Under the pieces are notes generated by a model, which made no database searches, was not told where the DNA came from, and saw only the letters and a program-made list of their open reading frames with translations. A stretch of DNA of 35,587 nucleotides from Patescibacteria group bacterium (GTDB lineage: Bacteria; Patescibacteriota; UBA1384; 2-12-FULL-50-11; DASWYB01), in assembly GCA_041486955.1 (NCBI GenBank), contig JBGPML010000003.1, positions 1 through 35,587 of the forward strand. The letters run 5' to 3'. This document shows, in pieces, positions 1 through 33,621 of the stretch (position 1 is the first letter of the stretch; each line of letters opens with the position of its first letter). Made by a program: the position numbers and the translations under genes.

Positions 1-118
1 AACTTCCGAAATTGGGCTCTTTCTGCGTTATCACTTCCGTTCCTCATTCGACGTACATTTAAGTACGTCTCATTCCAGTACTCAACTCTGCCTTGAAATA
101 GCTCCAATTTGGAAAGTT
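1..118. repeat. Palindromic intergenic element, subfamily A, copy A1 (may be cut by the window edge)
   Basis: Core gacgtac-atttaa-gtacgtc (50-69); imperfect terminal arms aacttccgaaattgg / ccaatttggaaagtt; aligns by eye with 14073-14193 and the reverse complement of 33500-33621. Confidence 0.85.
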
Positions 119-131
119 CATGAAAGTCTAA

Positions 132-160
132 TTGAAGTTTTATCTGGTTCAGGGTAAAAT
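132..160 (+). promoter_or_regulatory. Sigma70-type promoter for a probably leaderless leuS
   Basis: TTGAAG(132-137)-17 nt-TAAAAT(155-160)-6 nt-ATG(167); no SD. Confidence 0.6.
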
Positions 161-166
161 TACCCT

Positions 167-2554
167 ATGAAAGCGCGGAAATATAATCCACACCAAATCG
201 AACAAAAATGGCAGAATATTTGGCCTAAAGAATGGGAGAGCTATAAACTCCAGCCTGGCGAAGAAAAATATTACTGTTTAGATATGTGGTCTTACCCGTC
301 GAGCGACGGCTTGCACACAGGGCATTGGCGTCCGTATACGATTGCTGATGCATGGGCTCGTTATCAAACGTTAAAAGGAAAAAAAGTTCTTCACCCAGTT
401 GGTTTCGATGCTTTTGGGTTACCAGCAGAAAATGCCGCCATTAAGAATAAGACTCATCCAGCTGATTATACTAAAACGTCGATCGCCAATTTTACCCGTC
501 AGCTTCACGAACTTGGTGCAATGTACGACTGGTCTACCCATTCAGTATCCAGCTCCCCGGATTACTACCGTTGGACCCAATGGTTGTTCCTACAACTTTA
601 TAATAACGATCTGGCCTATCGAAAATCGGCTTTAGTTAATTGGTGCCCGAAAGATCAAACCGTTTTAGCCAACGAACAAGTGATAGGTGGTCGTTGTGAA
701 CGATGTGGTACGGAAGTCAATAAGAAAGAGCTCAAACAGTGGTTTTTCAAAATTACCGATTTCGCTGAAGATCTGTTAAATTTCGACGGTCTTACCTGGC
801 CAGAACGGGTGAAAACCCTTCAGAGGGCCTGGATTGGCAAAAGTGAAGGCGCAGAAATTGACTTTCCCATCACGGAATCGAACGAAAAAATTAAGGTTTT
901 TACCACACGACCGGATACGTTGATGGGAGTCACCTACCTTGTCTTAGCCCCTGAACATCCATTCGTTAAGTTAATAACGTCTGAATCACAAAAGAACATT
1001 GTCACGGCCTATCAAGAACAGGCACTAAAAGAAAGCGAAATCGAACGATTGACTGAAAACCGTAAAAAGACCGGCGTTTTCACCGGCGCTTATGCTAAGC
1101 ATCCTCTTACAGATAAGGACATCCCGATCTGGGTGGCCGACTATGTCTTGGGTACCTACGGTACCGGCGCGGTCATGGGAGTGCCAGCGCACGACAGCCG
1201 AGACTTTATTTTCGCCCGCGATTATAAATTACCGATTGCGTATGTTATCAGCCCGCCAGAGGGTGTGGTCAATGACGATGCTCCCTATCTTGAACCTGGA
1301 ACAATGATTAACTCTGATGACTTTAATGATCAGACGAACGAAGCGGGTGGCAAGGCAATTGTCGAGGCACTCGAAAAAAAAGGTAGCGGAAAATGGACGG
1401 TTCAATACCGACTCCGTGACTGGTTAGTTTCGAGGCAACGTTATTGGGGCGCCCCGATCCCGATTATCTACTGTGAAAAATGCGGTGAACAAGCTGTTCC
1501 GGAATCTGACCTTCCCGTACTATTACCTACCGACGTAGAATTTATGCCGACGGGCGGTTCTCCACTCGACCGTCATCCAACCTTTAAACATACGTCGTGT
1601 CCAAACTGTGGTGGTTCAGCTACTCGTGAAACTGATACATTAGACACGTTTGTTGATTCATCGTGGTACTTCCTTCGTTATACTGATCCAAAGAACGATA
1701 AAGAACCATTTAGTAAAGAGCAAGTTGAAAAATGGTTACCAGTCGATTTTTATGTCGGTGGAGTTGAACATGCGATTCTTCATTTGCTCTATGCGAGATT
1801 TGTGACCAAGGCTTTACAGCGACTTAACTATGTCTCATTTCACGAACCGTTTAAGCAGTTTTACGGGAATGGTATTGTCTATCTCCACGGTAGTAAGATG
1901 TCGAAATCAAAAGGGAATATTGTTAATCCTGACGATATTGTTAAAAGGCACGGTACCGATGCCCTCCGAGGATATATATTGTTTATGGGACCAGGAGATC
2001 AGGATGTGGAATGGCAGGAAAACGGAATTCTCGGCGTCCGACGTTTTATGGATAAGTCTTGGCAGATTTTTCACAACGTCGAAATCGATTCAAATAATGA
2101 AACCGTCCGGCCACCGATTGAAAAAGCCTATCAAGCAATTTCCGATCTATTGCCACATCTCTACTTCAACCGCTGTATCAGTACTCTCATGACGGCCGCT
2201 AACGAGCTCCAAGATGTCCGGCTTAATAAACACGAAGCTGAAATCTTAGCCATTATACTTTCGCCATTCATGCCTCATTTAGCTGAAGAGGTATGGTCGA
2301 TTTTGGGCCATTCCACCTCGATTTTTGATGCTCAGTGGCCGGTAATCGAAGTTGCGGCAGAAAAAACAGTAATCTACGCCATACAAGTCAATGGGAAGTT
2401 ACGTGGTACGTTAGAGGCAGACCGGGAGGCGGATGAGTCAAAAATCATTAACGAATCTAAGCGATTATTACATGCAAAGTCTCAATTGGATGAAAATAAT
2501 ATCATCAAAACGATCTTTGTTGCTGGACGAATCGTTAATTTCGTGGTAAAATAA
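167..2554 (+). CDS. leuS: Leucine--tRNA ligase
   Basis: YPSSDGLHTGH (HIGH variant), GFDAFGLPAENAA, FTTRPDT editing domain, SRQRYWG, KMSKS, C-terminal QVNGKLRG. Confidence 0.98.
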   Translation: MKARKYNPHQIEQKWQNIWPKEWESYKLQPGEEKYYCLDMWSYPSSDGLHTGHWRPYTIADAWARYQTLKGKKVLHPVGFDAFGLPAENAAIKNKTHPADYTKTSIANFTRQLHELGAMYDWSTHSVSSSPDYYRWTQWLFLQLYNNDLAYRKSALVNWCPKDQTVLANEQVIGGRCERCGTEVNKKELKQWFFKITDFAEDLLNFDGLTWPERVKTLQRAWIGKSEGAEIDFPITESNEKIKVFTTRPDTLMGVTYLVLAPEHPFVKLITSESQKNIVTAYQEQALKESEIERLTENRKKTGVFTGAYAKHPLTDKDIPIWVADYVLGTYGTGAVMGVPAHDSRDFIFARDYKLPIAYVISPPEGVVNDDAPYLEPGTMINSDDFNDQTNEAGGKAIVEALEKKGSGKWTVQYRLRDWLVSRQRYWGAPIPIIYCEKCGEQAVPESDLPVLLPTDVEFMPTGGSPLDRHPTFKHTSCPNCGGSATRETDTLDTFVDSSWYFLRYTDPKNDKEPFSKEQVEKWLPVDFYVGGVEHAILHLLYARFVTKALQRLNYVSFHEPFKQFYGNGIVYLHGSKMSKSKGNIVNPDDIVKRHGTDALRGYILFMGPGDQDVEWQENGILGVRRFMDKSWQIFHNVEIDSNNETVRPPIEKAYQAISDLLPHLYFNRCISTLMTAANELQDVRLNKHEAEILAIILSPFMPHLAEEVWSILGHSTSIFDAQWPVIEVAAEKTVIYAIQVNGKLRGTLEADREADESKIINESKRLLHAKSQLDENNIIKTIFVAGRIVNFVVK

Positions 2555-2623
2555 CTCTGTTATCGAACACGTGAAGATGCGTATATACACATCGCTATAA
2601 AGAACTGTTAGGATTAAATAACT

Positions 2624-2812
2624 ATGCCGCAACCGAAAAAACGTTTATCTCATACCAGGTCTGGCAATCGCCGCAGTCATTTAAAGCTGCAATCAGTCGC
2701 AGTAACTTCATGTTCCAACTGTCATACTCCCGTATCACCGCATACGGTCTGTTTAAATTGCGGTTATTATCGCGGTAAACGAGCAATTCCTCAAAAAGCT
2801 CAATCAAAATAA
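2624..2812 (+). CDS. rpmF: 50S ribosomal protein L32 (zinc-binding type)
   Basis: MPQPKKRLS..RRSH, CxxC..PHTVCxxCGYYRG. Confidence 0.97.
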   Translation: MPQPKKRLSHTRSGNRRSHLKLQSVAVTSCSNCHTPVSPHTVCLNCGYYRGKRAIPQKAQSK

Positions 2813-2827
2813 GTTAAGAAGGGCACT

Positions 2828-3265: not shown

Positions 3266-3275
3266 GGTTTAACGC

Positions 3276-3980: not shown

Positions 3981-3985
3981 CGCTT

Positions 3986-4148
3986 GAACCTATCTTATAA
4001 ATCAAACCTTAAGCTGCAAACGAGAATATTAGAGCTGCACGCCACGAATCACTCGTCAAAATAGTGTAAACTATTCTTCCTCGTAAGTTCGGGGCGTTCG
4101 CTTATAATCTGCTCGTTTTCGCTATCAGGCAGATTTTAAGACAGGTTC
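3986..4148. repeat. Palindromic intergenic element, subfamily B, copy B1
   Basis: Terminal arms gaacctatcttataaatc / gattttaagacaggttc; core aaaatag-tgtaaa-ctattct (4058-4077); gctgca..tcgtcaa..tag..cta..cttcct..ttcgg..ttcgct shared with the reverse complements of B2 and B3. Confidence 0.85.
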
Positions 4149-4568
4149 CTAGTCACTCGAAGCAGATGCCTCAGCCCAACCTGGACCAGCTGATGCTTGG
4201 GCATGTGCGTCTCCGCTTTCCGTTTCGGCAGATACCATATCTTGGTATTCATAATGTTTGACTTCATATGTGTGCGTCGTGTAAGTTATTTCTTCTATAG
4301 CTTGCGGTGATTTATTATCAGTATCATTTGAATGGCCATCATCTTTTGATGATCCATCTTTGCTTAGCTCTATTGTTGGTAACTGTGTCGGTGTTACTTC
4401 TGGGGTTGGAGTAAGAATAGCTACAGGGAGCGAGGAAGTCGGAGTAGGTGTTATTACCACTGCCCTTCGACGCTTAACCCAGCCAAAAATGAGGTATAAG
4501 ACTAGTCCAAGAACAATAAAACCAATTACGAGGCGGATAATAAGAGTTAATAGATCGGATCGTACCAT
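4149..4568 (-). CDS. Hypothetical single-pass membrane protein with a Pro/Thr-rich linker
   Basis: N-terminal hydrophobic helix followed by KRRR, TPTPT repeats and an acidic tail. Confidence 0.75.
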   Translation of the reverse strand: MVRSDLLTLIIRLVIGFIVLGLVLYLIFGWVKRRRAVVITPTPTSSLPVAILTPTPEVTPTQLPTIELSKDGSSKDDGHSNDTDNKSPQAIEEITYTTHTYEVKHYEYQDMVSAETESGDAHAQASAGPGWAEASASSD

Positions 4569-4618
4569 ATTTATTTCAAGATGATTTTACTTCATTTAGC
4601 GAATCAAAAGCGAAGCTT

Positions 4619-5355: not shown

Positions 5356-6090
5356 TTAGTCAGCTCCATTGCAGTAGACCCGCAGTTTTTCATACCATGT
5401 AATCGCTTCATAGCCGACCCAATTTTTAGGCATAAGTTCGGCTGGCAGCCGCGGATCATTTTTGCAATGAAGAGCTAGGTTTACGACCATACATTTAGCA
5501 AAAAAAGAACGGTTCTGACGATTTTTTAATTGCCGATACTCTTTTTGAAACTGTTGAAAGAGATTCTGGTAATCTTCAGCCACCTTGGGAAGATCCCATA
5601 GCTTGACCACATCTATTTGATTACCTCCAACATGATCAGATTCAAAAAAGTGGACTGATTCGACTAGGTCAGTTTCGGTAATGATTGAATTAAAACGATC
5701 CACAACATCTCGGTTGGGGGTAATCCAAACACTCGATTGCAGCATGCGTGCACCGAGATCCATTAATTTAAGACGAAACATTTGTCGAATCGTTCGTTTT
5801 GACTCTGGGACATCAAAAAGAATAATTCGCCATTTTTTATCCCAGGTGTGGTTTGGATCAGGCAAACGAGATAAAATATCTGATAAACAGGCATCCCCTT
5901 TTTCAGTTAAAACAAAATATTCCGAATCGTCGGATTTAATTCGCTGGATGTAATTTAATCCCTCCAGTCGTCCGAGAGCGCCCAAAGCTTGGCGTTTATT
6001 CCCAAAATATTCCAGCTCGCTCAATCCAACTTGTCCATGGTCTTCAACAAAGACGAGAATTTTATTAAATAATGAAATATCTAATTCCAT
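5356..6090 (-). CDS. PaaX-family transcriptional regulator (wHTH, Cas2-like ferredoxin domain, PaaX C-terminal domain)
   Basis: wHTH ending FVLTEKG; WDKKWRIILFDVPE..R..L..LG..LQSSVWITP; DPRLPAELMPKNW. Confidence 0.85.
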   Translation of the reverse strand: MELDISLFNKILVFVEDHGQVGLSELEYFGNKRQALGALGRLEGLNYIQRIKSDDSEYFVLTEKGDACLSDILSRLPDPNHTWDKKWRIILFDVPESKRTIRQMFRLKLMDLGARMLQSSVWITPNRDVVDRFNSIITETDLVESVHFFESDHVGGNQIDVVKLWDLPKVAEDYQNLFQQFQKEYRQLKNRQNRSFFAKCMVVNLALHCKNDPRLPAELMPKNWVGYEAITWYEKLRVYCNGAD

Positions 6091-9291: not shown

Positions 9292-11551
9292 GGTAGTGTT
9301 CCTTTAGAAAATTTTCGAGACTCGAATGGATTGATTGAACTTCTTCACCCGTGAGGGTCTTATCAGGCGATTGGTAGAAAACGTGAAAGGCCAAAGAATA
9401 ATTATCATCACCAAGTTTAGTATCAGTATAGGTGTCGAATAGCTCAACGGCAATAATAAAGGGATGGAATTGAGTCATAACCTGGGTGATATCATCGATT
9501 GAATGAGTTTTTTCAACAACAATGGCAATATCGCGTCGGCTTGACTGGTGTTTAGCTACTGGTGAGTAATGGATAGCATCCAAATCAGTTGCCATCACTT
9601 GAGGTGATTCAAATTGCTTCAAACTCAAAATCTCTTCCGCAGGTAGTTCTAAGACGGTAACGTTAAGTTTTCGTATTTTATAATCATTTCGGACCTCGTC
9701 CGGTAAGCTAATAATCCGAGTCATCCATGAAGCAACGGGTAAACGCAGTCGTTCAAAAATGTTTTTCCACCAATTATCAATATCGGCGAGATTGTTCCCA
9801 CTGGCGGAAATACAAAGCGTTTCTACCTCTCGGTCTGGGTGGTAGACTTTGGCCATTTCGAACAAATAAATTTGTGGAATTTCTGGATTAGTTGAAATTG
9901 TCAGTAGGGTTCCCGGTATGAGGGTTGGTCGCATGAGCGGTTTTTCTGCAAGAGCGGGTACAACTAATTCCATTGGCTCGGGGACAAGATTTAAATGAGC
10001 GAGCTCAGTTTCTTTAATAAATGGATAGGTGCTTATTTCATTTGCCCCAAGGTTCACCAGTGTATCTTTTACCGCTTCTTCGCGCCAGAATTTTGATCGT
10101 TTCCATTGCGGGACGCTGGCTGATAAGGGGGTCATATTTAAATTATTCAAACCGACTAACCGGGCGAGTTCTTCGTAATAATCTTCAACCAACGATAAAT
10201 CAAAGCGCCATGTCGGTGGCATGACCTCAATCTCTATCTCATTGATATTAATCTCGCAGCCGAGAGCGGTCAGGATGGTCGAGATCCGCTCCTCAGTTAA
10301 TTGCGTTCCAATAAATGTGCTGGCTGATTCGGCGGTAAACGATGTTTTGACGGGGGTCGGAGAATGATTGATTTTTTCAATTGGTTCGTAAGCTTTGCCC
10401 TTGGTGGTCTTTTGCCATAGTGCCAGAGCGTGAGCTAGGGCCTGAAGTCGTAAATTTGGATCAACTCCTCGACTAAAACGCTGGGCGCTATCAGTCAGTA
10501 TTCCCAATCCACGAACAGTTTTAGCAATCTGACGAGAATTAAAGTTGGCACTTTCAAAAACGATATTCCGGGCAGTATCGCCAACTTTTGTTGCATCTCC
10601 TCCCAAGACACCAGCAAGAGCCACGGGGCTGTCGTTATTCACTATGACTAAGCTCTGAGGCGTAAGATTATACGTCATCCCATTTAAACCAGTGAATGTT
10701 TCACCATCGTGAGCGCGTCTGACTCCAAAGACTGGATTGCTACTCAGCAATTCCTGATTATACGCGTGGAGTGGTTGTCCGTACTCAAGCAAGACGTAGT
10801 TGGTAATGTCAGTCGCAAGATTAATTGAACGAGCACCTAAAAGAGTTAATCGACTCTGCATCAATAAAGGTGTGTGATACCTTTCTGCTTCAGTTGAAGC
10901 TCCAGCCAGACTAAAAGAGTTGACGTCGGAATGAATTGAATCGATCCGAACTATTTCTTCTGTTTTACCGGTATATTCTGGGGTGAGAAAGTTGGGTTGG
11001 AGTGTTATCGATTCAGTTTTAGCCGCAATATCGCGAGCTAAACCAAAATGGGATAAGACGTCACCTCGATTGGGAGTGATTTCGAGAGAAATAACTGCGT
11101 CAGGTTCAATATAAGATTTGATCGAATGACCGACTTCGGCAGAGTCAGGGAGTGGCAAAAGTGTAGCATGATTATGAGAGAGTCCAAGTTCATCAGCCGC
11201 GCAGAGCATCCCACTTGATTCAACGCCACGGATTTTGGCTTTTTGGATTTTCATTCCAGACGGGAGGGTTGTACCGATTGCCGCATAGGCAACTTTTTGT
11301 CCAACTTTAAGGTCGGGAGCACCGCATACCACTTCTCTTTCTCCCGAGGTAGTTTTAACGGTCACTAAAGAAAGCGTGTCGGCGTTGGGATGATTCCCTA
11401 CGGCAGAAATCTCAGCCACGCTAATACCTTCATAGTTAGCTGGAACAATACCTTCACTGTCATGGCCAATATCAGCCAATATCGACTCTATTGAGTCGAG
11501 GGAAGGAATATTCGGATAAAACTCTTTGAGCCAAGAATAAAGATATTTCAT
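9275..11551 (-). CDS. pheT: Phenylalanine--tRNA ligase beta subunit
   Basis: HPNADTL..VVCGAP, IRGVESSGMLC, EITPNRGDVLSH, B5 PPTWRFDL, C-terminal FDX-ACB domain. Confidence 0.97.
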   Translation of the reverse strand: MKYLYSWLKEFYPNIPSLDSIESILADIGHDSEGIVPANYEGISVAEISAVGNHPNADTLSLVTVKTTSGEREVVCGAPDLKVGQKVAYAAIGTTLPSGMKIQKAKIRGVESSGMLCAADELGLSHNHATLLPLPDSAEVGHSIKSYIEPDAVISLEITPNRGDVLSHFGLARDIAAKTESITLQPNFLTPEYTGKTEEIVRIDSIHSDVNSFSLAGASTEAERYHTPLLMQSRLTLLGARSINLATDITNYVLLEYGQPLHAYNQELLSSNPVFGVRRAHDGETFTGLNGMTYNLTPQSLVIVNNDSPVALAGVLGGDATKVGDTARNIVFESANFNSRQIAKTVRGLGILTDSAQRFSRGVDPNLRLQALAHALALWQKTTKGKAYEPIEKINHSPTPVKTSFTAESASTFIGTQLTEERISTILTALGCEININEIEIEVMPPTWRFDLSLVEDYYEELARLVGLNNLNMTPLSASVPQWKRSKFWREEAVKDTLVNLGANEISTYPFIKETELAHLNLVPEPMELVVPALAEKPLMRPTLIPGTLLTISTNPEIPQIYLFEMAKVYHPDREVETLCISASGNNLADIDNWWKNIFERLRLPVASWMTRIISLPDEVRNDYKIRKLNVTVLELPAEEILSLKQFESPQVMATDLDAIHYSPVAKHQSSRRDIAIVVEKTHSIDDITQVMTQFHPFIIAVELFDTYTDTKLGDDNYSLAFHVFYQSPDKTLTGEEVQSIHSSLENFLKEHYHATIR

Positions 11552-12626: not shown

Positions 12627-12946
12627 GATTTGTCCTTCTGTTGGTCTAAGAGCGATTCAAGTTTGGTAACTCTGCCATCATCTTTAAGAAATTGTAATTT
12701 TGGGACGATTTTACGGGCGAATTTTTTGAGGAAGGCATGTTGAATTTCTCGATGATGCTCGCCATTTAATTTTGTCACAATATCGTCCGGCGCATCCACC
12801 CAAATTCGGCATTCATGACCATCGTTAGAAAGTAAAACATCAGTCACGACAACGGCATGAAATAGTTCATGATCAATTTGACTCAGTTCAGTCGAGACAA
12901 TTCGCTTAATATGGGAAAGTATTTGTTGTTGGCGAGTGATGTTCAC
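12623..12946 (-). CDS. rbfA: Ribosome-binding factor A (divergent)
   Basis: R..IKRIVS..VVTDVLLSNDGHECRIWV..RKIVPKLQFLKD matches the RbfA KH-fold pattern; GTG start. Confidence 0.8.
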   Translation of the reverse strand: MNITRQQQILSHIKRIVSTELSQIDHELFHAVVVTDVLLSNDGHECRIWVDAPDDIVTKLNGEHHREIQHAFLKKFARKIVPKLQFLKDDGRVTKLESLLDQQKDKS

Positions 12947-13003
12947 CTGTTAATCATACCAAAAGGTATGATATGGCTCAAGATGGTATGGTATGCTGAA
13001 ATT
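12947..13003. promoter_or_regulatory. Compact divergent promoter region with an 8-bp inverted repeat
   Basis: atcatacc-aaaa-ggtatgat; minus strand TTGAGC-17-TATGAT-6-GTG(rbfA); plus strand TGG-TATGCT-6-GTG(13004). Confidence 0.6.
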
Positions 13004-14074
13004 GTGAACAGAGAATTCCTGCGCTTTTCAGTAACGCTATTTATTGTGATATTGGTAAGCCTTAGTTTAGCTTTGGCCTATGATCGTCAGGTTAATTCGT
13101 TTATCAGTGCCGTCAATCTTGATGCCAAAGACCAGCTGATTGCCTCAAACCAAAATACGATCGACTATTATGAAAAACAGAATAAATCAGTTCAAGCTGA
13201 GCTTGAAGCCCGAAATAAAGAACTCGATGCGAAGAAAACAGAATTAGATAAAACGAATAGCGATCTGACAGCAAAAATAAAAGAGCTGAACTCTGCTAAG
13301 TCACAGCTTTCTTCGACCGCCTCGGAATTAAGTAAGCTTCGTGAGCGCCCACCGCTATTTGTCTTTAAAGTTGATAGCAACCTGACCAATGTTGATCAAA
13401 AAAAAGAAGATGTTAAAAATTTGGTTACCGCAGCCTATGACGAAATAGTATCTATTTATAGTAAGCCATACCTGCTTCATTCAGTCACAATTAACTTCGT
13501 TAACTCATTTTCCAATCCTAATGCCTCAGCAGAAATTGTGATTGAGAATGGCAGTGACGGCTTACAACTCACGATAAAGATTAAGGATTTTGATCGGAAC
13601 AGTTTTGATGACAATAACTCCATCATTCATGAAATTATCCACTCGTTTCATGGATTAGCGGCCTTAGAAACGGTTGCTGACGAAGAAGGCATTACTGTGG
13701 CAGCAACGGACGCGGTCATGTCGCGGTTAATCAGCCAGGGGAAAATTCCCTCATTCAATCCTCTCTACATCAGAATTTCTTCTAGTGATTATGCCAGTAG
13801 TTCACTCACCGTACCGCGCGATACAACGAGCTTTTATACTTCGAGTGATACTGGGAAATACTATCAGCTCGTCGGGTATGGGTGGTATCAATTATATAAA
13901 GCCGATCCTAATTTCTTTAAGATATTTAATGAAAAAATGTACGCGTCCAAACGGCAAGGTCAGGATATGACAGAATCATTAGTTCGGCAAAATATAGTCG
14001 CCTCAGTTTCCGGTCAAATTTCTGGAAAGTCAGTCAATGACTGGTTGCAAACTAAAGCCTTCGTCTTTCGGTAG
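13004..14074 (+). CDS. Membrane-anchored or exported coiled-coil protein with a HExxH zinc-metallopeptidase domain
   Basis: N-terminal hydrophobic helix, heptad coiled coil, IIHEIIHSFH plus downstream EEG; start reassigned to GTG 13004 to avoid overlap with rbfA. Confidence 0.8.
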   Translation: MNREFLRFSVTLFIVILVSLSLALAYDRQVNSFISAVNLDAKDQLIASNQNTIDYYEKQNKSVQAELEARNKELDAKKTELDKTNSDLTAKIKELNSAKSQLSSTASELSKLRERPPLFVFKVDSNLTNVDQKKEDVKNLVTAAYDEIVSIYSKPYLLHSVTINFVNSFSNPNASAEIVIENGSDGLQLTIKIKDFDRNSFDDNNSIIHEIIHSFHGLAALETVADEEGITVAATDAVMSRLISQGKIPSFNPLYIRISSSDYASSSLTVPRDTTSFYTSSDTGKYYQLVGYGWYQLYKADPNFFKIFNEKMYASKRQGQDMTESLVRQNIVASVSGQISGKSVNDWLQTKAFVFR

Positions 14075-14193
14075 TCGTCACGAATATCGTCTCTTTCTGT
14101 GTCATAATTTCCGTTTTTCGCTCAACGTACGGTTATGTACGTTTCACTCAATACTCAATTATTTCTTGAAATAGCCTGATTTTCGTGCCAACT
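14073..14193. repeat. Palindromic intergenic element, subfamily A, copy A2
   Basis: ctctttctg..ttccgtt..tc-aacgtac-ggttat-gtacgtt-tca..tactcaa..cttgaaatagc aligns with A1; arms cacgaatatc / gattttcgtg. Confidence 0.85.
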
Positions 14194-18232: not shown

Positions 18233-18619
18233 CTAAGTTTTGTCAGCGGATTTCTTACGGCCTGAACCAACGGTCATTTTCTTACCTCGTTTTATACGAG
18301 CGTTGGTCTTTGTTCGTTGACCACGAACCGGTAGTCCCGCAGCATGCCGTATACCGCGATACGTACCAATATCTTTTAATCGCTTGATATTTCGATTCAC
18401 TACCAATCGAGCGTCACTCTCAACCGTGAGATTCTTGTCTATATAAGTCCGAAGTTTTTCAACTTCACCTTCCGTTAAATCCTTGGTTTTAGGATTATTG
18501 GTGATATGGCATTCCCGAACAATCTGTCCAGCGGTCGTAATACCAATGCCATAAATATCGGTCAATGCTGTGGTAATTCGCTTATCGTTATCTAAATTAA
18601 TTCCAGCAATACGAATCAT
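18233..18619 (-). CDS. rpsM: 30S ribosomal protein S13
   Basis: MIRIAGINL, IYGIG, YRGIRH..LPVRGQRTKTNAR; true start 18619. Confidence 0.98.
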   Translation of the reverse strand: MIRIAGINLDNDKRITTALTDIYGIGITTAGQIVRECHITNNPKTKDLTEGEVEKLRTYIDKNLTVESDARLVVNRNIKRLKDIGTYRGIRHAAGLPVRGQRTKTNARIKRGKKMTVGSGRKKSADKT

Positions 18620-18783
18620 AGGGCTCCCCGAGAAACTTGTTTTCGAGATGGAACTGACCATGTTTGGAGCGAAAAGTCTGAAGCGTAAGGAGGCATAGTT
18701 GTCACTATGTCGACGAGCGATGAGGACTTTACAGCCCAAAGTGGGCTGTTACTGTCGAAATTCAAGTTTTTCTGGGAGTCCAT
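18616..18783 (-). CDS. Putative 55-aa ORF encoded by repeat B2 (MDSQKNLNFDSNSPLWAVK...RGAL)
   Basis: ATG 1 nt after the rpmJ stop with AAGGA upstream; TGA overlaps the rpsM ATG (ATGA); same frame as the ORF in B3. Confidence 0.45.
   Translation of the reverse strand: MDSQKNLNFDSNSPLWAVKSSSLVDIVTTMPPYASDFSLQTWSVPSRKQVSRGAL
18621..18781. repeat. Palindromic intergenic element, subfamily B, copy B2
   Basis: Arms gggctccc.gagaaacttg / caagtttttc.gggagtcc; core GA-ggcatagt-tgtc-actatgtc-GA; 23-nt block gaccatgtttggagcgaaaagtc identical to B3. Confidence 0.92.
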
Positions 18784-18784
18784 A

Positions 18785-18901
18785 CTATCCTTGTCGTTGC
18801 TTATGACGGGGATTCTTTTTACAAAGTACACGAACAACACCATCCCGACGAATGATCTGGCATGTTTCACACATTCTTTTAACTGATGGTCGTACTTTCA
18901 T
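18785..18901 (-). CDS. rpmJ: 50S ribosomal protein L36 (not in the ORF track)
   Basis: Manual translation: [38 protein letters not shown]. Confidence 0.98.
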
Positions 18902-18907
18902 AATAAT

Positions 18908-25646: not shown

Positions 25647-25952
25647 CTATAACGTTTTCTGGCCCAATCGACTGGTACGAAGCTTGTCTTTATTCTCAAG
25701 CGTGTAACCAATTCGGGTTGGTTTTTTAGAATCGGCATCAAGAAGCATGACATTACTGGCATGAATTGCCCGGAATAACTCGACCACGCCGCCTGAAGGA
25801 TTCTTGGCTGATGGTTTAAGGTGTTTCTTATATTTATTTACACCAGTAACAGCGACACGGTTAAGCAACGGCAGAACGGCTTCTATTGTGCCGGTTTTGC
25901 CGCGGTCTTTCCCTGCAATGATGAGAACGGTGTCACCTTTTTTGAGTTTCAT
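25647..25952 (-). CDS. rplX: 50S ribosomal protein L24 (alternative in-frame ATG at 25964)
   Basis: MKLKKGDTVLIIAGKDRGKTG, IHASNV. Confidence 0.98.
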   Translation of the reverse strand: MKLKKGDTVLIIAGKDRGKTGTIEAVLPLLNRVAVTGVNKYKKHLKPSAKNPSGGVVELFRAIHASNVMLLDADSKKPTRIGYTLENKDKLRTSRLGQKTL

Positions 25953-25955
25953 TTT

Positions 25956-26118
25956 TGAACCCATTATAAAACTCGCTTTCTTGACGAAACAGACCATGTT
26001 TGGAGCGAAAAGTCCGAATCATAAGGAAGCATAGCGGATGCTACGTTGACGAATAATGCGGGCTTTGCAGCCCAAAGTGGACTGTTGCAGTCGAAATTGG
26101 AGTTTTGTAGTGGGTTCA
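25956..26118. repeat. Palindromic intergenic element, subfamily B, copy B3
   Basis: 19-bp arms tgaacccattataaaactc / gagttttgtagtgggttca (2 G-T); core GA-agcatagc-ggat-gctacgtt-GA; homologous to B2. Confidence 0.92.
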
Positions 26119-26119
26119 T
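25964..26119 (-). CDS. Putative 51-aa ORF encoded by repeat B3 (MNPLQNSNFDCNSPLWAAK...RKRVL)
   Basis: AAGGA-5 nt-ATG(26119); TAA overlaps an ATG (TAATG) in frame with rplX. Confidence 0.45.
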   Translation of the reverse strand: MNPLQNSNFDCNSPLWAAKPALFVNVASAMLPYDSDFSLQTWSVSSRKRVL

Positions 26120-28502: not shown

Positions 28503-28504
28503 AG

Positions 28505-28795
28505 TTATACCTTTGTTGGCTCTTTCGACTGTTCCTTCGCCATTTTGCCACCGTGACGACGGAATTTACGGGTTGGAGCAAATTCACCTAATTTATGACC
28601 AACCATGTCTTCAATAATAAAAACTGATATATGAGTCTTACCGTTATGGACTAAAAATGTATGTCCGACCATCTCCGGAAAAATAGTACAATCACGAGCC
28701 CACGTTTTAATCGGTTGTTTTACACTACCAAGCTGGGCTAATTTCTTAGCCACTCTTGGATCGATGAACGGACCTTTTTTGAGTGAACGACTCAT
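28505..28795 (-). CDS. rpsS: 30S ribosomal protein S19
   Basis: [23 protein letters not shown]. Confidence 0.98.
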
Positions 28796-28840
28796 TTATT
28801 ATTCTCCTGTGGTAATTATACCTGATGGCAACGCTTTTAT

Positions 28841-29683
28841 CTAGCGTTTTTTCCCGCGTCGACGCACGATGAAAGGATTAGTCGACTTGTTACGGCGAGT
28901 GCGATAGCCGAGAGCTGGTTTACCGGTCGGGGTTTTAGGATGTTTCAAACCGATCGATGAGTGTCCTTCTCCTCCACCATGCGGGTGATCGACCGGGTTC
29001 ATGGCTTTACCACGAACTTGTGGGCGGCGACCCATATGACGAACTCGTCCGGCCTTGGCAATTCGGACGGTATTGTGTGATGGATTAGATACTTCACCAA
29101 TGGTTGCGAATGCCGTGAGGTGAATAAGTCGGACTTCACCACTTGGTAAACGGACTTGAGCGTAATTGCCTTCTTTCGCCAAAACCACGGCACTTGTACC
29201 AGCTGACCGAGCAAGCTGACCGCCTTTACCCGGCGTAAGTTCTATATTATGAATTGGGGTGCCCGTCGGAATCATAGCCAATGGCATTCGGTTGCCAGTC
29301 GTTAATGGAGCTTTTTCATCTGTCACGATGTTACTACCAACTTTCAAGTCTTGGGGGGCGATAAAATAGGCTTTTTTGCCAGATTCAAACGTCGCTAAGG
29401 CAATATAGGCGCTTCGGTTTGGGTCATATTCAATCGCATCAACTCGAGCTTTCTGTCCGATCGTTTTGAGACCAGAAAAATCAACAAGGCGATACATTCG
29501 TTTTGCGCCACCACCTCGGTGTCGAATACTAATCCGTCCCCGAATATCGCGGCCGGCGTGCTTTTTTAAGGCAATGGTTAATGATTTTTCAGGACTTTTT
29601 TTGGTGATGTCAGAGTGAACCACATACGACATCTTCCGTCTGGCTGATGTAGTGGGACGAACCACGCGAATTGGACTAGCCAT
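28841..29683 (-). CDS. rplB: 50S ribosomal protein L2
   Basis: HRGGG, EYDPNRSA, MNPVDHPHGGGEG. Confidence 0.98.
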   Translation of the reverse strand: MASPIRVVRPTTSARRKMSYVVHSDITKKSPEKSLTIALKKHAGRDIRGRISIRHRGGGAKRMYRLVDFSGLKTIGQKARVDAIEYDPNRSAYIALATFESGKKAYFIAPQDLKVGSNIVTDEKAPLTTGNRMPLAMIPTGTPIHNIELTPGKGGQLARSAGTSAVVLAKEGNYAQVRLPSGEVRLIHLTAFATIGEVSNPSHNTVRIAKAGRVRHMGRRPQVRGKAMNPVDHPHGGGEGHSSIGLKHPKTPTGKPALGYRTRRNKSTNPFIVRRRGKKR

Positions 29684-29685
29684 GG

Positions 29686-30755: not shown

Positions 30756-30756
30756 A

Positions 30757-31371
30757 TTATGCCTTTTCAATAATAAGATGAGACTTGTTCGCCCCAGGGA
30801 GTGCGCCTGAAATGGCAATCGTGGCATCGGTTTCGTTAATTGCTACGACATGGTGACCATGAACGGTTACAGTTTCATGCCCCATATGTCCGGGTAATTT
30901 TTTACCAGGAACCACTCGTTGCGGATAACCGCTTCCAATTGAACCAGGCGCTCGATGATGTTTTGAACCATGGGACATTGGACCTCGGCTCCAACCATAA
31001 CGTTTGATTCCACCAGAAAATCCTTTGCCTTTGCTTGTTCCGGTTACAACAACAACGTCACCAGGTGTAAAACTGGTGACGGAAACAGAACTACCGATGG
31101 AAACATCTTCTTCTGGCAATACGCGCGTTTCAAAACGGTGGGAGATAGTGGTATCAATATTGTGTTTTTTGAGTTCTTCGGCTTGCGGTTTTGGCATACG
31201 CTTAGTAACCACCGCGCCAATTTGCACGGCGGAATATTTATCCTTCTCATTCGTTCGGATAGCAGTTACAACTTGGGTTGGTACTTTCAAAATCGTCACA
31301 GGAATGTGGCGATGTTTTTCGTCATAGATGTGGGTCATCCCCAATTTTTGGGCCATAACTGCAGCAGTCAT
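30757..31371 (-). CDS. rplC: 50S ribosomal protein L3
   Basis: KLGMT, SKGKGF, SHGSKHHRAPGSIG, GHMG. Confidence 0.98.
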   Translation of the reverse strand: MTAAVMAQKLGMTHIYDEKHRHIPVTILKVPTQVVTAIRTNEKDKYSAVQIGAVVTKRMPKPQAEELKKHNIDTTISHRFETRVLPEEDVSIGSSVSVTSFTPGDVVVVTGTSKGKGFSGGIKRYGWSRGPMSHGSKHHRAPGSIGSGYPQRVVPGKKLPGHMGHETVTVHGHHVVAINETDATIAISGALPGANKSHLIIEKA

Positions 31372-31555
31372 AATAAATCCTTTAAAGATACAAATAAACG
31401 GCTCAGAACTGTCCTAGCATCTTGTTTTTCAGTACTCAACCTTATAGACGGTCTGTAAAAAAGACCGCACTTGTGATTGATTGTCTGCAACCCAAGGTGC
31501 TGGGCGTTCTCCAAGCCATTGATCCCCCAACGGGCGCTGAGGTACGTAAAGCTAC
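31372..31555 (-). promoter_or_regulatory. Long structured 5' leader of rplC (candidate ribosomal leader)
   Basis: Rod-like fold 31398-31519 with apical cggtct/agaccg, lying between a promoter and the rplC start. Confidence 0.5.
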
Positions 31556-31561
31556 TTGTTC

Positions 31562-31590
31562 ATAATATAACAAATGACCCGGAGAGTCAA
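31562..31590 (-). promoter_or_regulatory. Promoter for the rplC-led operon
   Basis: TTGACT-17 nt-TATTAT. Confidence 0.7.
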
Positions 31591-31608
31591 CAGATTTACA
31601 GGGTAATT

Positions 31609-33417
31609 TTACACAGATTTCGCAGCAGTGGCAGCTAATTTTTCGTTCGGTTGCGACTCATGGGCGGCATGTGATTGCAGCCGCCACATTCCTGCGTATA
31701 CACCATCCTGCTTTAAGAGGGTGTGATGTGTACCGGATTCGACGATTTTACCATGTTGCAGAACGTAAATTGTGTTGCTGTCGACGATGGTTGACAGGCG
31801 ATGGGCAATAGCTATGGTTGTTCGACCTTCCGCCACTTCTTGGAGTGTTTGGAGGATAGCTTGTTCGCTTTTTGAATCCAGACTACTGGTGGCTTCATCA
31901 AAAAGAAGTATTTTCGGGTTCTTTACGATGGCCCGAGCTATCGCGACCCGCTGCTTCTCACCACCACTGATTTTCACCCCACGCTCACCGACAAGTGTGT
32001 CGTAACCTTGTGGGAGTGAATCTATAAAGTCGTGGATGTGAGCTCCTTTAGCAGCAGCAATAATTTCTGCTTTGGTTGCATTGGCTTTGCCAAATTTAAT
32101 ATTATTAGCAATTGTATCATTAAACATCGCTGGTTCTTGAGGCACGATTCCTAAAAGAAGACGCCGATCATCAGGTGAAATATCTTTTAAATTGACCCCA
32201 TCTATCGTAATGGTTCCGTCACTAACGTCGTAGAGACGAAAAATAAGTTTAGCGATGGTTGATTTCCCGGCCCCACTTGAACCGACAAACGCGACCTTTT
32301 GTCCTGGTTTAATTTCTAAATTAAGATCGTTGATAACATTTTCTCGACCCTTATAACCGAAGCCGACATGTTCAAAGGTGACCGCTCCCTCTGGGTCAGT
32401 GACTTTAATCGGATGTTCACTTTCGTGCATTTCTGAATCTTTCATCAAAATACGACCCATTGAATCGAGGTCGGCAAAGCTATTTTTGTAAGCGCCATAG
32501 ACGAATCCGAGGGTGGCTATTGGGATTGAGAGACGAACAATATAGGTTGAAAGTAAAACAATATCACCAACGCTAAGAATCCCAATCGCGGCCTGCTTGA
32601 TGCCAAATGTCAAAATTAAACCGAGACCTAATAAAAGAATTATCCCTTGCGACCCTGTAATTAACGCAAAAATTCGATTGTTGCGCACAAGGAGTCGATA
32701 CCAATCTTGTTTAATGCCTTTAAATTCATTGAACTGAATCGCTTCGTTGTTAAAATATTTAACCGTATCGATGTTCGTAATCGAATCAACCAAAATTCCA
32801 CCAGCTAAATCGTTCTTTTTATTGCCTTCAATGCGAAGTTTCTGACGTCGTTCGGTACTCCATAACGTAAACCAGGCATAGATGACGACAGTGGCTAAGG
32901 TAATTACACCATATTGCCAATCGTACAAACGGAGCAAAAGAATCGTGACGAAGATTAACTCAAATATCGGAGGAAGAATTTGGGAAACGGAGAAGTCTAA
33001 AACAAAGCTTATAGCTTGCGAGCCTCGAGCAATGGCCTGGGCCGCCGATCCTGATCGCTGATCAGCATGATAGCTGACTGGAAGCTTGAGAAGGTGATTA
33101 AATACCGCGGTCTCTATATCACGTGAGACACCCATGACGACGGGAGAAAAAATATAATCTCGAAGATATTCAAAAGTGATCGAAAGCAGCTTAATACCAA
33201 AATAGACTATTAGAATACTAATGATCGCTTCGAATGGTTGGTGAATCGTTAAGGCATCAATAATTTTCTTAATATAAATTGGTTCAAACGTAGTCGCCAT
33301 ACGAGCACTAATCAAGAGGATTAATGTGGCTATAACAAAAAATTTATACTTAACAAAGTATCGAATAAAATAGATGATGGAAAATTTCGGTTCTTTAGTT
33401 GGTTCAGGTTTGTTCAT
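31609..33417 (-). CDS. ABC transporter, fused permease/ATPase (ATM1/HMT1-like exporter)
   Basis: 6-TM domain, Walker A GSSGAGKST, VGERGVKISGGEKQRVAIARA, DEATSSLD, IAHRLST. Confidence 0.95.
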   Translation of the reverse strand: MNKPEPTKEPKFSIIYFIRYFVKYKFFVIATLILLISARMATTFEPIYIKKIIDALTIHQPFEAIISILIVYFGIKLLSITFEYLRDYIFSPVVMGVSRDIETAVFNHLLKLPVSYHADQRSGSAAQAIARGSQAISFVLDFSVSQILPPIFELIFVTILLLRLYDWQYGVITLATVVIYAWFTLWSTERRQKLRIEGNKKNDLAGGILVDSITNIDTVKYFNNEAIQFNEFKGIKQDWYRLLVRNNRIFALITGSQGIILLLGLGLILTFGIKQAAIGILSVGDIVLLSTYIVRLSIPIATLGFVYGAYKNSFADLDSMGRILMKDSEMHESEHPIKVTDPEGAVTFEHVGFGYKGRENVINDLNLEIKPGQKVAFVGSSGAGKSTIAKLIFRLYDVSDGTITIDGVNLKDISPDDRRLLLGIVPQEPAMFNDTIANNIKFGKANATKAEIIAAAKGAHIHDFIDSLPQGYDTLVGERGVKISGGEKQRVAIARAIVKNPKILLFDEATSSLDSKSEQAILQTLQEVAEGRTTIAIAHRLSTIVDSNTIYVLQHGKIVESGTHHTLLKQDGVYAGMWRLQSHAAHESQPNEKLAATAAKSV

Positions 33418-33425
33418 TTATATTT

Positions 33426-33434
33426 ATTATAGCA
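33426..33434 (-). promoter_or_regulatory. Extended -10 promoter for the ABC transporter gene
   Basis: TGC-TATAAT-8 nt-ATG. Confidence 0.6.
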
Positions 33435-33499
33435 ATGATGTCGTATTTAGTCGGCATATACCTGATTGCTAATAGTCAGTTAAGGTCGAAATAGGCACG

Positions 33500-33621
33500 A
33501 AAAAGATGTGCAGTTGTGACGATTTCGAGGCAGAGCTGAGTACTGAACGAGGCGTACTCGACGTACGTCGAGTGAGGCTCGGAAGCTCTAACAAAGAAAT
33601 CGTCCAAGTTCACACCTTTTT
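33500..33621. repeat. Palindromic intergenic element, subfamily A, copy A3
   Basis: Arms aaaaagatgtg..gacgatttc / gaaatcgtc..cacaccttttt; core GA-ggcgtac-tcgac-gtacgtc-GA; reverse complement aligns with A1 (cttccg..cctca.tcgacgtac..gtacg.ctc..cagtactca.ctctgcct.gaaat). Confidence 0.88.

Follow-up and report, generated by a model that had tools for sequence, protein, structure and literature searches.

Two related families of covarying hairpin repeats in the intergenic spacers of a small Patescibacteria genome

Integron attC sites, such as the ~125-bp Vibrio cholerae repeats, are imperfect palindromes located 3' of an ORF, with a folding strand that is complementary to the mRNA. Correia elements carry conserved inverted repeats at their termini and show a TA duplication. 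ERIC, or IRU (127 bp), and the related RU are presented, in the portions of two papers that deal with them, as imperfect palindromes in transcribed spacers with no transposase of their own (PMC10969869, PMC2759123). The corresponding portion of the first of these describes Correia elements as RNase III substrates that form long RNA hairpins (PMC10969869). REPINs, in the account of them that we draw on, are doublets of REP hairpins that are extragenic and predicted to fold as single-stranded DNA or as mRNA (PMC3116915). Our literature search found no paper on the repeats described here in CPR. The main text of a 2024 MITE survey mentions neither Patescibacteria, nor Saccharibacteria, nor CPR; its supplementary tables may list such families (PMC11602168).

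The window analyzed here is a stretch of 35,587 nucleotides from a Saccharibacteria-type genome of 0.84 Mb (92.5% complete). A first-pass annotation of the window had proposed that six dispersed palindromes belong to one structure-defined family, mobile or regulatory. The six elements are members of two related hairpin repeat families, A and B, and both families are patchy across Patescibacteria.

Six rods, two families and a covarying fold

All six elements were found where the first-pass annotation had placed them, and each folds as a rod:

1..118, GA-rich strand minus: A1, family A rod at the contig start
14073..14193, GA-rich strand minus: A2, family A rod
33500..33621, GA-rich strand plus: A3, family A rod
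3986..4148, GA-rich strand minus: B1, family B rod with convergent genes on both sides
18621..18781, GA-rich strand plus: B2, family B rod
25956..26118, GA-rich strand plus: B3, family B rod between rplN and rplX (both minus strand)

In every copy, one strand (minus for A1, A2 and B1; plus for A3, B2 and B3) reads the tip GA-stem-loop-stem-GA, with exactly the stems that the annotation had listed. The GA/GA flank, invariant in the original six, is near-invariant in the alignments of both families, and the shared tip is larger than had been described, extending to GTGAG-hairpin-TGA(A)CGAG. Besides the tip, each rod has three or four more GA-containing internal loops. Viewed as a duplex, the tip is an imperfect inverted repeat whose two arms flank a spacer of 4-7 bp and agree in their inner 6 bases but not outside them.

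Folded as single strands, the family A elements of the window have energies of -22 to -53 kcal/mol (z -2.6 to -6.5). The weakest of these folds is that of the A2 plus strand, and 4 of 200 shuffled sequences folded equally well. The central 150 nt of the B elements forms a rod on both strands (z -3.6 to -6.1). As sequence repeats, B2 and B3 match over 151 nt at 77% identity (79% in a separate comparison), A1 and A2 match over 69 nt at 74%, and A1 and A3 are linked in inverted orientation. There was no near-identical pair among the six query elements, aside from a contig-end duplicate, and iterated nhmmer searches of the whole genome revealed no seventh copy of A or B in the window. The gene upstream of A1 is on another contig, the end of which overlaps A1.

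Many further copies lie beyond the window, in this genome and in other CPR genomes. Iterated nhmmer searches of this genome gave 46 matches to family A, corresponding to 45 loci and the contig-end duplicate of A1 (3 partial), and 54 matches to family B, corresponding to 27 loci that were each matched on both strands. The loci of the two families are 117-194 bp in length, all 72 are intergenic, and jointly they account for ~1.2% of the genome DNA. Searching both strands of the whole window with the Rfam 15 covariance models gave no matches at E ≤ 1, in agreement with the earlier failure to assign the elements to a named class.

The covariation that had been predicted from the six copies is strong in the alignments of both families. 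In family A (40 sequences), 33 of 39 pairs have changes on both sides, and 92.4% of cells pair compared to 68.7% in shuffles. None of 500 shuffles reached any of the five pairing measures, and slid controls gave 33-40%. In family B (20 sequences), the corresponding values are 47 of 50 pairs and 92.0% of cells, compared to 71.1% in shuffles, with 0 of 500 shuffles reaching the observed pairing and slid controls at 36-42%. The copies are old (the best other copy of A1 is 82% identical to it), and those of A and B are still 92% paired.

The conserved part of family A is the center of the rod and not its termini. The ends of A are paired inside each copy and differ between copies, and the outer 9-14 bp vary freely. 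The ends of B are conserved between copies (TGAACTCAT.../...ATGAGTTCA). Many rods start with (A/G)AC and finish with GT(T/C).

Strand asymmetry and placement at genes

The GA-rich strand has the more stable fold in 45 of 46 A copies and 26 of 27 B copies in this genome. On that strand, wobble cells outnumber A.C cells by 137:42 (A) and 91:23 (B) in this genome, and by 59:12 and 69:28 (A) and 218:44 (B) in other genomes. For family B, the ratio is 30:8 in nine copies with the GA strand sense and 30:7 in nine copies with it antisense, indicating that the asymmetry is a property of the element and not of the host transcript. Most strain differences in the window are G>A on the plus strand, which is C>T on the coding strand. 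A mutation bias of this kind would give the opposite asymmetry in A and so does not explain it.

Family A follows a placement rule. At 32 of the 45 loci in this genome the rod is flush with a stop codon and has its GA strand opposite the mRNA, and the GA strand is complementary to the mRNA at 40 of the 42 loci that have a neighbor on that side. The same placement and orientation were found at 21 of 28 loci elsewhere, including other classes of the phylum. At 21 of the 45 loci, inside operons, the GA strand is antisense to both neighbors. In the window, the first two bases of A2 are the AG of the TAG stop codon (14072-14074) of a plus-strand gene (12869-14074), to which the GA-rich strand of A2 is opposite. 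A3 lies 2 nt past the rpsJ stop (33624-33626, minus strand), with rpsJ on one side and an ABC-transporter gene on the other, and its GA-rich strand (plus) is opposite to the operon mRNA. TGA accounts for 3 of the 32 stop codons adjoining A compared to 190 of 726 genome-wide, a weak difference (Fisher p = 0.024) that is no more than a hint that the first bases of the rod (AA/AG) form part of the stop codon. The genes that have a copy on either side are ordinary housekeeping genes.

Two other accounts of the A copies were considered and rejected. One was orientation linked to replication: in another genome, the 12 copies along 949 kb of one contig switch orientation four times, and orientation follows the local gene in the six copies that abut a stop codon. 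The other was that the outer stem is a former terminator stem, as suggested by the A5/T5 ends of A3 and by two relatives that have a G+C-rich terminator hairpin and T run past rpsJ, where this genome has A3. Other copies have neither a regular T run nor a G+C-rich stem, and the right flanks of the 46 aligned A copies showed no regular T run that would indicate an intrinsic terminator. No consistent target-site duplication, TA included, was found at A or B copies; in one of the comparisons, the MFE-based ends of most copies were unreliable because spurious outer pairs formed.

The B elements in the window also fit tightly between genes. B1 is 5 nt past the stop of rnc (RNase III) and 0 nt from the stop of the gene at 4149-4568 (minus strand). 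B2 fills the spacer between rpmJ (stop 18785-18787, minus strand) and rpsM (ATG 18617-18619, minus strand); its GA-rich strand is plus, so the CU-rich strand is in the mRNA. Open frames read from the sequence pass through two of the rods:

18616..18783, minus (mRNA) strand: open frame of 55 codons through B2
25964..26119, minus (mRNA) strand: open frame of 51 codons through B3

The B2 frame has its ATG 1 nt past the rpmJ stop, and its TGA overlaps the rpsM ATG (ATGA). The B3 frame has its ATG past the former rplX Shine-Dalgarno sequence and its TAA 11 nt ahead of the rplX ATG (25950-25952). In B copies pressed against a start codon, frame starts and stops are in coupling positions. In this genome, 19 of the 27 B copies have a CU strand that is free of stops across 93% or more of the element, where shuffles predict 10.1; elsewhere 49 of 72 copies do, for an expectation of 28.5. 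Because B copies are related, this excess does not represent independent events. A polar placement of B is present in this genome and absent in 55 copies of other genomes, where placement relative to genes is irregular, and we rejected it as a rule.

Turnover of copies and competing explanations

Family A was found in neither of two genomes of the same family and in none of 19 genomes of the same order. It was present in 9 of 11 genomes of another family and in 15 of 151 genomes in the class, and a phylum sample of 150 other genomes gave 13 other matches, all outside the class. Family B was present in 48 of 151 genomes in the class and in eight genomes of other classes in the phylum sample. 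A strict 28-base B pattern occurred in 45 stretches over 185,579 species; all but two were in CPR-named MAGs, and one of those two stretches is syntenic with this genome. In a tree of the A core, drawn from a short alignment and read without considering support values, copies from this genome are intermixed with copies from other genomes.

There is evidence that individual copies come and go. A syntenic relative lacks A3, B2 and B3, and an empty site, which the first-pass annotation had named as a thing to look for, was found for B3. One natural-population contig lacks B3 and is otherwise identical over 559 nt. The join at this site, 25947 to 26115, skips 167 nt that have the 7-nt TTCATTT on both sides. 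What remains at the empty site is a repeat of 3-7 nt that includes 4 nt from the element's own end. Since no near-identical pair among the six query elements indicates a recent burst, B3 may have been lost by slippage between the 7-nt repeats and not newly inserted. Two other junctions, at 28789-28982 and 31806-31887, had short sides (21-37 nt) and 85% likeness, were inside conserved ribosomal and ABC genes, and were taken to be from other organisms. One orthologous spacer contains two B variants that are ~55-60% identical, as read by eye, with flanks that are 80-83% identical. Orthologous A copies from two species or genera retain their pairing: in each of two ortholog pairs, 10 of 39 pairs are doubly changed and only 4-5 are broken.

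A mobilizing enzyme was sought with models for five transposase and reverse transcriptase families (PF01797, PF13358, PF00665, PF00078 and PF07282). The window had been said to contain no transposase, which is correct, and none of the Y1_Tnp, DDE_3, rve, RVT_1 and TnpB-type models matched the assembled genome. With completeness at 92.5%, a mobilizing gene could lie in a gap. Across the class, 28 of the 48 genomes that have B contain a Y1_Tnp match, as do 51 of the 103 that lack it, with no clear association, and a B copy was within 2 kb at two of eight Y1 loci examined. There were rve matches in 56 of 151 class genomes and not in this one. There is one tyrosine recombinase per genome. This enzyme is also present in a relative that has no A or B copies and is most simply an ordinary Xer enzyme.

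We favor, at roughly even odds (probability about 0.5), the reading that A and B are non-autonomous, structure-defined mobile hairpin elements, similar to MITEs, REPINs or ERIC, that ride in operon transcripts. The unit of selection would be the GA-rich strand in its self-folded, single-stranded form, giving a long rod with the asymmetric core GTGAG-hairpin-TGA(A)CGAG and several tandem G.A internal loops. This core would be recognized by a trans-acting, structure-specific enzyme outside the five families searched, probably through a single-stranded DNA intermediate. Copies would be gained, lost and replaced in short intergenic spacers over evolutionary time, and after insertion would be carried in operon transcripts, where only placements that spare gene expression would survive. 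For A, this would be the position directly past a stop codon, in the orientation that puts the CU-rich strand into the mRNA. For B squeezed against a start codon, the open frame could hand ribosomes to the next gene by translational coupling. Of the original proposal of a mobile or regulatory family, the family itself and the gain, loss and replacement of copies have held up, and the regulatory half is still conjectural.

Several observations run against mobility. Under this reading the placement and orientation rule of A is explained by nothing beyond "selection", the termini of A vary in sequence, unlike the ends of MITEs, and there is no mobilizing gene of the five families searched, no recent burst and no consistent target-site duplication. 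The pairing kept in place at orthologous A loci looks like locus-level selection, which a host function would explain no less well than mobility. It seems somewhat unlikely, but deserves serious consideration, that the rods are domesticated elements kept by the host for a role at gene ends in operons, with mobility ancient or incidental. They could be protectors of 3' ends, RNase III sites that uncouple cistrons, brakes on terminating ribosomes, or platforms for a nucleoid or RNA-binding protein. Such a role would be consistent with the doubly changed pairs at A orthologs, the age and persistent pairing of all copies, the failure to find a transposase in the genome, the stop-flush position and fixed orientation of A across classes, and the retention of elements within essential operons for ribosomal proteins in a genome of 0.84 Mb. 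The genome encodes RNase III, with B1 directly past rnc, and there are precedents in the sections of one paper on these repeats, where RNase III cuts Correia elements and ERIC at 3' ends alters transcript levels (PMC10969869). A role at the mRNA level is hard to reconcile with the fact that the better-folding strand is untranscribed in A and can be either strand in B. In addition, B placement is irregular in other genomes, and part of a natural population can do without B3. A is missing altogether from the closest relatives, and both families are missing from many genomes, so no essential function is involved.

The remaining possibilities are less probable. That the folded GA strand is a substrate for a tyrosine recombinase, like integron attC or the attP of CTX phage, with the asymmetric GA loops acting as extrahelical bases that mark the strand for the enzyme, appears very improbable. 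The position of A directly 3' of an ORF, in fixed orientation and with the folding strand complementary to the mRNA, is as in attC; structure is conserved and sequence variable; and both the two-armed tip duplex with its 4-7 bp spacer and the (A/G)AC...GT(T/C) ends would suit such a site. However, the sole tyrosine recombinase per genome is also found in the element-free relative, and there is no integron integrase, attI-like platform or cassette array, the copies being dispersed among housekeeping genes in conserved operons. The attC R-box consensus enters this comparison by description. We consider it highly improbable that each copy is an independent small RNA gene producing a rod-shaped RNA from the GA strand, active in trans or antisense to the gene end that it overlaps. 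Wobble pairs do favor the GA strand, and the conserved purine-rich internal loops resemble protein-binding motifs. Against this, flanks are unrelated between copies and so hold no conserved promoter outside the rod, a promoter within the rod would be unable to transcribe both arms, and the GA strand is antisense to both neighbors in operons at 21 of 45 A loci. To our knowledge, a set of 72 paralogous RNA genes would be without precedent in a genome of 0.84 Mb. Finally, it is extremely unlikely that B is a small protein gene of about 51-55 codons in which the palindrome is incidental. The excess of stop-free CU strands and the coupling-position starts and stops would be expected of such a gene, but in 9 of the 18 copies between tandem genes the mRNA contains the other strand, lengths are not constrained to multiples of three, variation tracks base pairing and not codons, and the open-frame excess comes from related copies.

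Patescibacteria genomes are among the smallest and most streamlined known, and more than 1% of this one is made up of two hairpin repeat families. Two properties are unusual among bacterial interspersed repeats: the fold of one fixed strand is kept whichever strand is transcribed, and, across classes, A is fixed at stop codons in the orientation that leaves the GA strand complementary to the mRNA. These point either to an enzyme with a new kind of target choice or to a new use of DNA or RNA structure at gene ends. A broader possibility, which we think distinctly unlikely, is that the rods are the visible half of a CPR-wide system in which a structure-specific protein of no known transposase class reads the core of the folded strand, with its stacked tandem G.A pairs, and places the element at the end of an ORF in fixed orientation. 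If so, targeting to gene ends would be coupled to the direction of gene expression and not to replication, and use of the host's own recombinase, as by attC or CTX, would be one version of it. The two covariance models provide an annotation marker for such genomes, and hairpin repeats of this kind help to explain contig breaks in metagenome-assembled CPR genomes.

Comparison with described systems

Like MITEs, the elements are small, non-coding, multi-copy and intergenic. No cognate transposase or parent insertion sequence was found among the five families searched. With regard to termini, B ends are conserved between copies and A ends pair within a copy and differ between copies; with regard to target-site duplication, there is a 3-7 nt repeat at the B3 empty site and none that is consistent at others. 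The elements resemble REPINs, as these are portrayed in the account cited above, in being non-autonomous, extragenic hairpin units with long-lived populations within genomes. REPINs have two conserved REP ends, are mobilized by RAYT transposases and lie next to a RAYT (Y1) gene, whereas here conservation is central, there are no two inverted conserved REP sequences and no linked RAYT (Y1 HUH), the genome has no Y1 gene, and there is no class-wide association with Y1.

With the Correia/NEMIS elements of Neisseria, to the extent that our source describes them, A and B share inverted-repeat structure at 100-160 bp, co-transcription with neighbors and the potential for long RNA hairpins; unlike Correia elements, they have no consistent duplication. 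Rickettsia palindromic elements, in the passage that treats them, are likewise found in a reduced genome and allow translation through a palindrome without damage to the gene (PMC10969869). Those elements are in frame inside genes, whereas B is intergenic and forms a separate small frame when tight on a start codon. Family A alone resembles attC in size, in its site directly past an ORF, in the precedence of structure over sequence, and in having a folding strand complementary to the mRNA. Unlike attC, it comes with no integron integrase, attI or cassette array and no evident R-box consensus, and its copies are dispersed in housekeeping operons.

ERIC/IRU, as far as the cited descriptions go, shares several features with A and B: imperfect palindromes of ~100-170 bp in dozens of copies, in transcribed spacers and with no transposase of their own, copy numbers that are very different between related taxa, an orientation at 3' ends that matters for the transcript, and possible open frames. 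This likeness is one of kind, drawn by description, and the host phylum is a different one. Unlike ERIC, one fixed strand folds better here, in A the untranscribed one; A is pinned to stop codons; and it is the asymmetric center that is conserved, with the ends of A free to vary.

Two families of elements with a common core

Each of the six palindromic elements in the window carries, on one strand (the GA strand; its complement is the CU strand), a tip in which a stem-loop-stem is flanked on both sides by GA. Reading the sequence confirmed this tip, with the stems listed in the first-pass annotation, in all six elements, which we assign to two families, A and B:

1-118, GA strand minus: A1, family A
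3986-4148, GA strand minus: B1, family B
14073-14193, GA strand minus: A2, family A
18621-18781, GA strand plus: B2, family B
25956-26118, GA strand plus: B3, family B
33500-33621, GA strand plus: A3, family A

All six were predicted to fold into a single rod on both strands, with the GA strand more stable than the CU strand by 5 to 18 kcal/mol in every case. Folding energies of the A elements were -22 to -53 kcal/mol (z = -2.6 to -6.5 against shuffles), the weakest fold, that of the plus strand of A2, being matched by 4 of 200 shuffles. The central 150 nt of the B elements gave z values of -3.6 to -6.1. A repeat search of the window paired B2 with B3, and A1 with both A2 and A3 (the latter inverted). 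The elements had earlier been left without a named class, and Rfam 15 gave no match anywhere in the window at E ≤ 1.

The proposal of a dispersed family called for further genomic copies, and these were abundant. Iterated nhmmer searches of the whole G000 assembly (840,807 bp, 85 contigs, 44.8% G+C), in which the window is contig C3, gave 46 matches to family A, corresponding to 45 loci and a contig-end duplicate of A1 (three were partial), and 54 matches to family B, corresponding to 27 loci, each matched on both strands because B is a nearly perfect palindrome. Together the families take up about 10 kb (1.2%) of the genome. When G000 was searched with a covariance model of family A (R1), 44 matches were recovered. 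Element matches lay within 50 nt of a contig end in 4 of 73 cases (0.7 expected), and the end of contig C30 (C30:24-141) repeats window positions 1-118 exactly; the hairpins seem to break the assembly.

Pairing was kept through two-sided changes, as had been claimed from the six copies. Among 40 A copies, 33 of the 39 consensus pairs (RNAalifold) were changed on both sides, and standard pairs filled 92.4% of cells, compared to 68.7% in shuffles and 33-40% when the partner was slid by 1-3 columns. Among 20 B copies, 47 of 50 consensus pairs were changed on both sides, with 92.0% of cells paired (71.1% in shuffles, 36-42% in slid controls). For A, none of 500 shuffles reached any of five measures, and none of 500 reached them for B; because the copies are related, the shuffle control overstates significance, a weakness from which the slid controls are free.

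The two families conserve different parts of the rod. In A, the centre is conserved in sequence and the outer 9-14 base pairs are almost wholly different between copies, yet paired within each copy. In B, the ends are conserved (TGAACTCAT.../...ATGAGTTCA). The GA-strand consensus is ...AGTGAG-nCGTAC-loop-GTACGT-TGAACGAG... for A and ...CGTGAGGA-GGCATAG-loop-CTATGT-TGACGA... for B. In both, the apical hairpin is preceded by GTGAG and followed by TGA(A)CGA(G/A), so that the GA/GA flank reported initially is present in both families as part of a larger common tip. Three or four more internal loops with GA on both sides lie below the tip of each rod; GA/GA loops of this type are known to form sheared pairs. 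The A model scored a B copy at only E = 0.62, indicating distinct families with a common module.

At one and the same position of the 3' arm, 4 of the 27 B copies have an insert of some 24 additional nt (GTGACC...GGAAATCCCATGGGGGCAGCC-like):

C10:11631-11813: B copy with insert
C4:7209-7388: B copy with insert
C2:5439-5629: B copy with insert
C35:6440-6624: B copy with insert

This insert may be a mini-element nested within B or else an optional hairpin, and some of the longer B matches of other genomes may also hold it.

Placement relative to genes

Housekeeping genes flank all six window copies. A3 starts 2 nt past the rpsJ stop, A2 includes the AG of a TAG stop, and B1 is squeezed between rnc (RNase III) and a convergent gene, with the stop codons of both facing it. 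The spacer from rpmJ to rpsM is filled by B2, and the one separating rplN from rplX holds B3. The operon spacers holding A3, B2 and B3 are 100-160 nt shorter in the syntenic relative G002, and two other relatives, G001 and G003, have a terminator-like hairpin after rpsJ at the position of A3.

Several neighbouring genes deserve mention in their own right. An ABC transporter gene (31609-33417, minus strand; 602 aa, membrane and ATPase domains) lies between rpsJ and rplC, within what would usually be the S10 operon, and G002 has the same arrangement. The rpmJ gene (L36, 38 codons; 18785-18903, minus strand), which falls under the size threshold of the ORF list, was read from the sequence between infA and B2. 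A PaaX-like regulator with a central Cas2-like domain is encoded at 5356-6090 (minus strand).

Gene positions across G000 were taken from a crude ORF caller. Of the 42 A loci with a neighbour 3' of the GA strand, 40 have that gene on the opposite strand. At 32 of 45 loci the stop of this gene falls no more than 25 nt from the HMM span, whose start lies about 10 nt into the rod. Within co-directional gene pairs, the GA strand was antisense to both genes at 21 loci and sense to both at 2. A rods tend to start with (A)AGA right behind a T, which puts the rod boundary inside the stop codon. TGA is rare beside A (3/32, compared to 190/726 genome-wide; p = 0.024), in agreement with this arrangement. 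The placement rule held in 21 of 28 A loci drawn from six genomes, five belonging to other classes and one to the same class, and in about 8 of 19 loci of a first sample. In another Patescibacteria genome, G076, 12 A copies change orientation four times along one 949-kb contig; orientation follows the local gene in the six that abut a stop codon, and the other six break the rule, five of them between divergent genes. The rule is thus tied to the direction of genes and not to that of replication. We found no orientation bias for B (9 vs 9 in G000; 22 vs 13 in other genomes).

Some A copies are clustered. Three (C27:5-103, 1170-1266 and 1356-1435) lie within 1.4 kb around the ribonucleotide reductase beta gene, and two adjacent inverted copies (C12:10941-11038 and 11076-11174) lie between convergent genes.

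In B copies that lie tight against a start codon downstream, the mRNA contains the CU strand, with an open frame passing through the element. The B2 frame begins 1 nt past the rpmJ stop and ends in a TGA overlapping the rpsM ATG; the same ATGA overlap ends the frame in two more B copies (contigs C19 and C18) and begins it in the C10 copy. The B3 frame opens at the ATG that follows what was once the rplX Shine-Dalgarno sequence, and its stop lies 11 nt ahead of the ATG of rplX. The CU strand was stop-free over at least 93% of B in 19 of 27 G000 copies (10.1 expected from dinucleotide shuffles) and in 49 of 72 copies elsewhere (28.5 expected), compared to 4 of 27 (3.0 expected) and 9 of 72 (10.6 expected) for the GA strand. 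Because the copies are related, we regard this excess as suggestive only. ERIC-type repeats with open frames offer a precedent (PMC2759123).

Distribution, probable loss and persistence

The large searches scored 18-21 candidates per genome and the genomes were samples, so the following counts are lower bounds. Family A was not found in the 2 same-family and 19 same-order genomes searched. It was present in at least 15 of 151 genomes of the class (G000 included), in at least 9 of the 11 members of one other family, and in at least 13 of 150 other genomes of the phylum sample, all 13 outside the class, with at least 14 copies at the upper end. Family B was found in at least 48 of the 151 class genomes, across many families, and in at least eight genomes of other classes in the phylum sample. 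A strict 28-base B pattern matched 45 stretches over 185,579 species (one genome each), 43 of them in MAGs with CPR names (Kerfeld-, Berkel-, Sacchari-, Parcu-, Brenner-, Taylor-, Vogel-, Uhr- or Yanofskybacteria, or 'Patescibacteria group') and two labelled Gammaproteobacteria. One of the latter, L160, has its B copy on a contig syntenic with G000 contig C34 (54-75% protein identity), which makes its label doubtful and probably wrong.

A search for empty sites showed B3 to be missing from one contig of the sediment metagenome X8. Over 559 nt this 625-nt contig agrees with the window at every base, after which position 25947 is followed directly by 26115; B3 is exactly absent, with one TTCATTT where the filled form has two. 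Four of these seven bases match the element's own conserved end, and the repeat can be either a 3-bp duplication plus chance or deletion microhomology. When the six window copies were used as queries against G000, there was no near-identical pair (the best other copy of A1 is 82% identical; B2 and B3 are 79% identical), so recent insertion of B3 from within the genome is unlikely and loss is the simpler reading.

Orthologous sites gave indications of both replacement and persistence. In one orthologous spacer of two species of a genus, flanks 80-83% identical enclose B elements only about 55-60% identical (estimated by eye from the alignment) and offset by about 17 nt, which points to replacement. 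In two orthologous A pairs, one within a genus and one between genera, 10 of 39 base pairs in each were changed on both sides, pairing was kept through these double changes, and only 4-5 pairs were broken; this points to long persistence under structural constraint. In a short tree of A cores, judged by topology alone, G000 copies were intermixed with those of other genomes.

Strand asymmetry, candidate enzymes and interpretation

In G000, the GA strand is predicted to fold more stably than its complement in all but one of the 46 copies of A (45) and all but one of the 27 copies of B (26). In the consensus helices of this strand, G.U cells outnumbered A.C cells by 137:42 in A and 91:23 in B, and in copies of other genomes by 59:12 and 69:28 (A) and 218:44 (B). 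Since A.C on the GA strand is G.U on the CU strand, this is a true strand asymmetry. For B, the ratio was 30:8 in nine copies with the GA strand mRNA-sense and 30:7 in nine antisense copies; the asymmetry therefore stems neither from selection on the host transcript nor from its mutation bias. Strain differences on the window are mostly G>A on the plus strand, that is, C>T on the coding strand, a bias that would give the opposite asymmetry in A.

Inspection of the window genes bore out the earlier statement that no transposase is present there, and assembled G000 (92.5% complete) had no match to Y1_Tnp, DDE_3, rve, RVT_1 or the TnpB zinc-ribbon domain. A single tyrosine recombinase is encoded in G000, and relatives likewise have one whether or not they carry elements. 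A 41-nt A left arm (C15:9345-9385), 1.8 kb downstream of this gene (C15:7011-7550), runs into unrelated sequence with another short hairpin. Y1_Tnp was found in 79 of 151 class genomes, often in multiple copies (up to 10), in IS200/RAYT-type frames that, at about 215-230 aa, exceed the usual length of IS200 TnpA. Its presence showed no association with B (28 of 48 B-carrying genomes; 51 of 103 without B), and a B copy lay within 2 kb at 2 of 8 Y1 loci, never flanking the Y1 gene. The domain rve was found in 56 of 151 class genomes. Genes between two copies were ordinary, for example dnaN and the ribonucleotide reductase beta subunit gene.

We give about an even chance (roughly 0.5) to these being mobile, non-autonomous, structure-defined elements whose GA strand is recognised single-stranded by a putative enzyme; their placement would be filtered by host tolerance. 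The main rival, a domesticated element acting at gene ends, would account for structure conserved in place and for an A placement rule that extends across classes, but the asymmetry favours the 'wrong' strand and copies are dispensable, and we consider it rather unlikely. A folded recombination site resembling attC fits the position and strand of A better than any other reading; it comes here without integrase or cassette context, and for that reason we judge it improbable.

We found no account of elements like these mobile candidates in CPR in the literature searched or in the main text of a 2024 MITE survey (PMC11602168). On the features tested, membership among the ERIC, Correia, REPIN or RPE repeats fails: no RAYT or other transposase was found in a 92.5% complete genome, there is no consistent duplication, and the A ends are not conserved. 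The kind itself, interspersed palindromic repeats such as these four, is familiar: such repeats are described as transcribed together with their neighbours, in some cases cleaved by RNase III or RNase E and in some cases with frames (PMC10969869), and REPINs as hairpins in single-stranded DNA or mRNA that are linked to a RAYT gene (PMC3116915).
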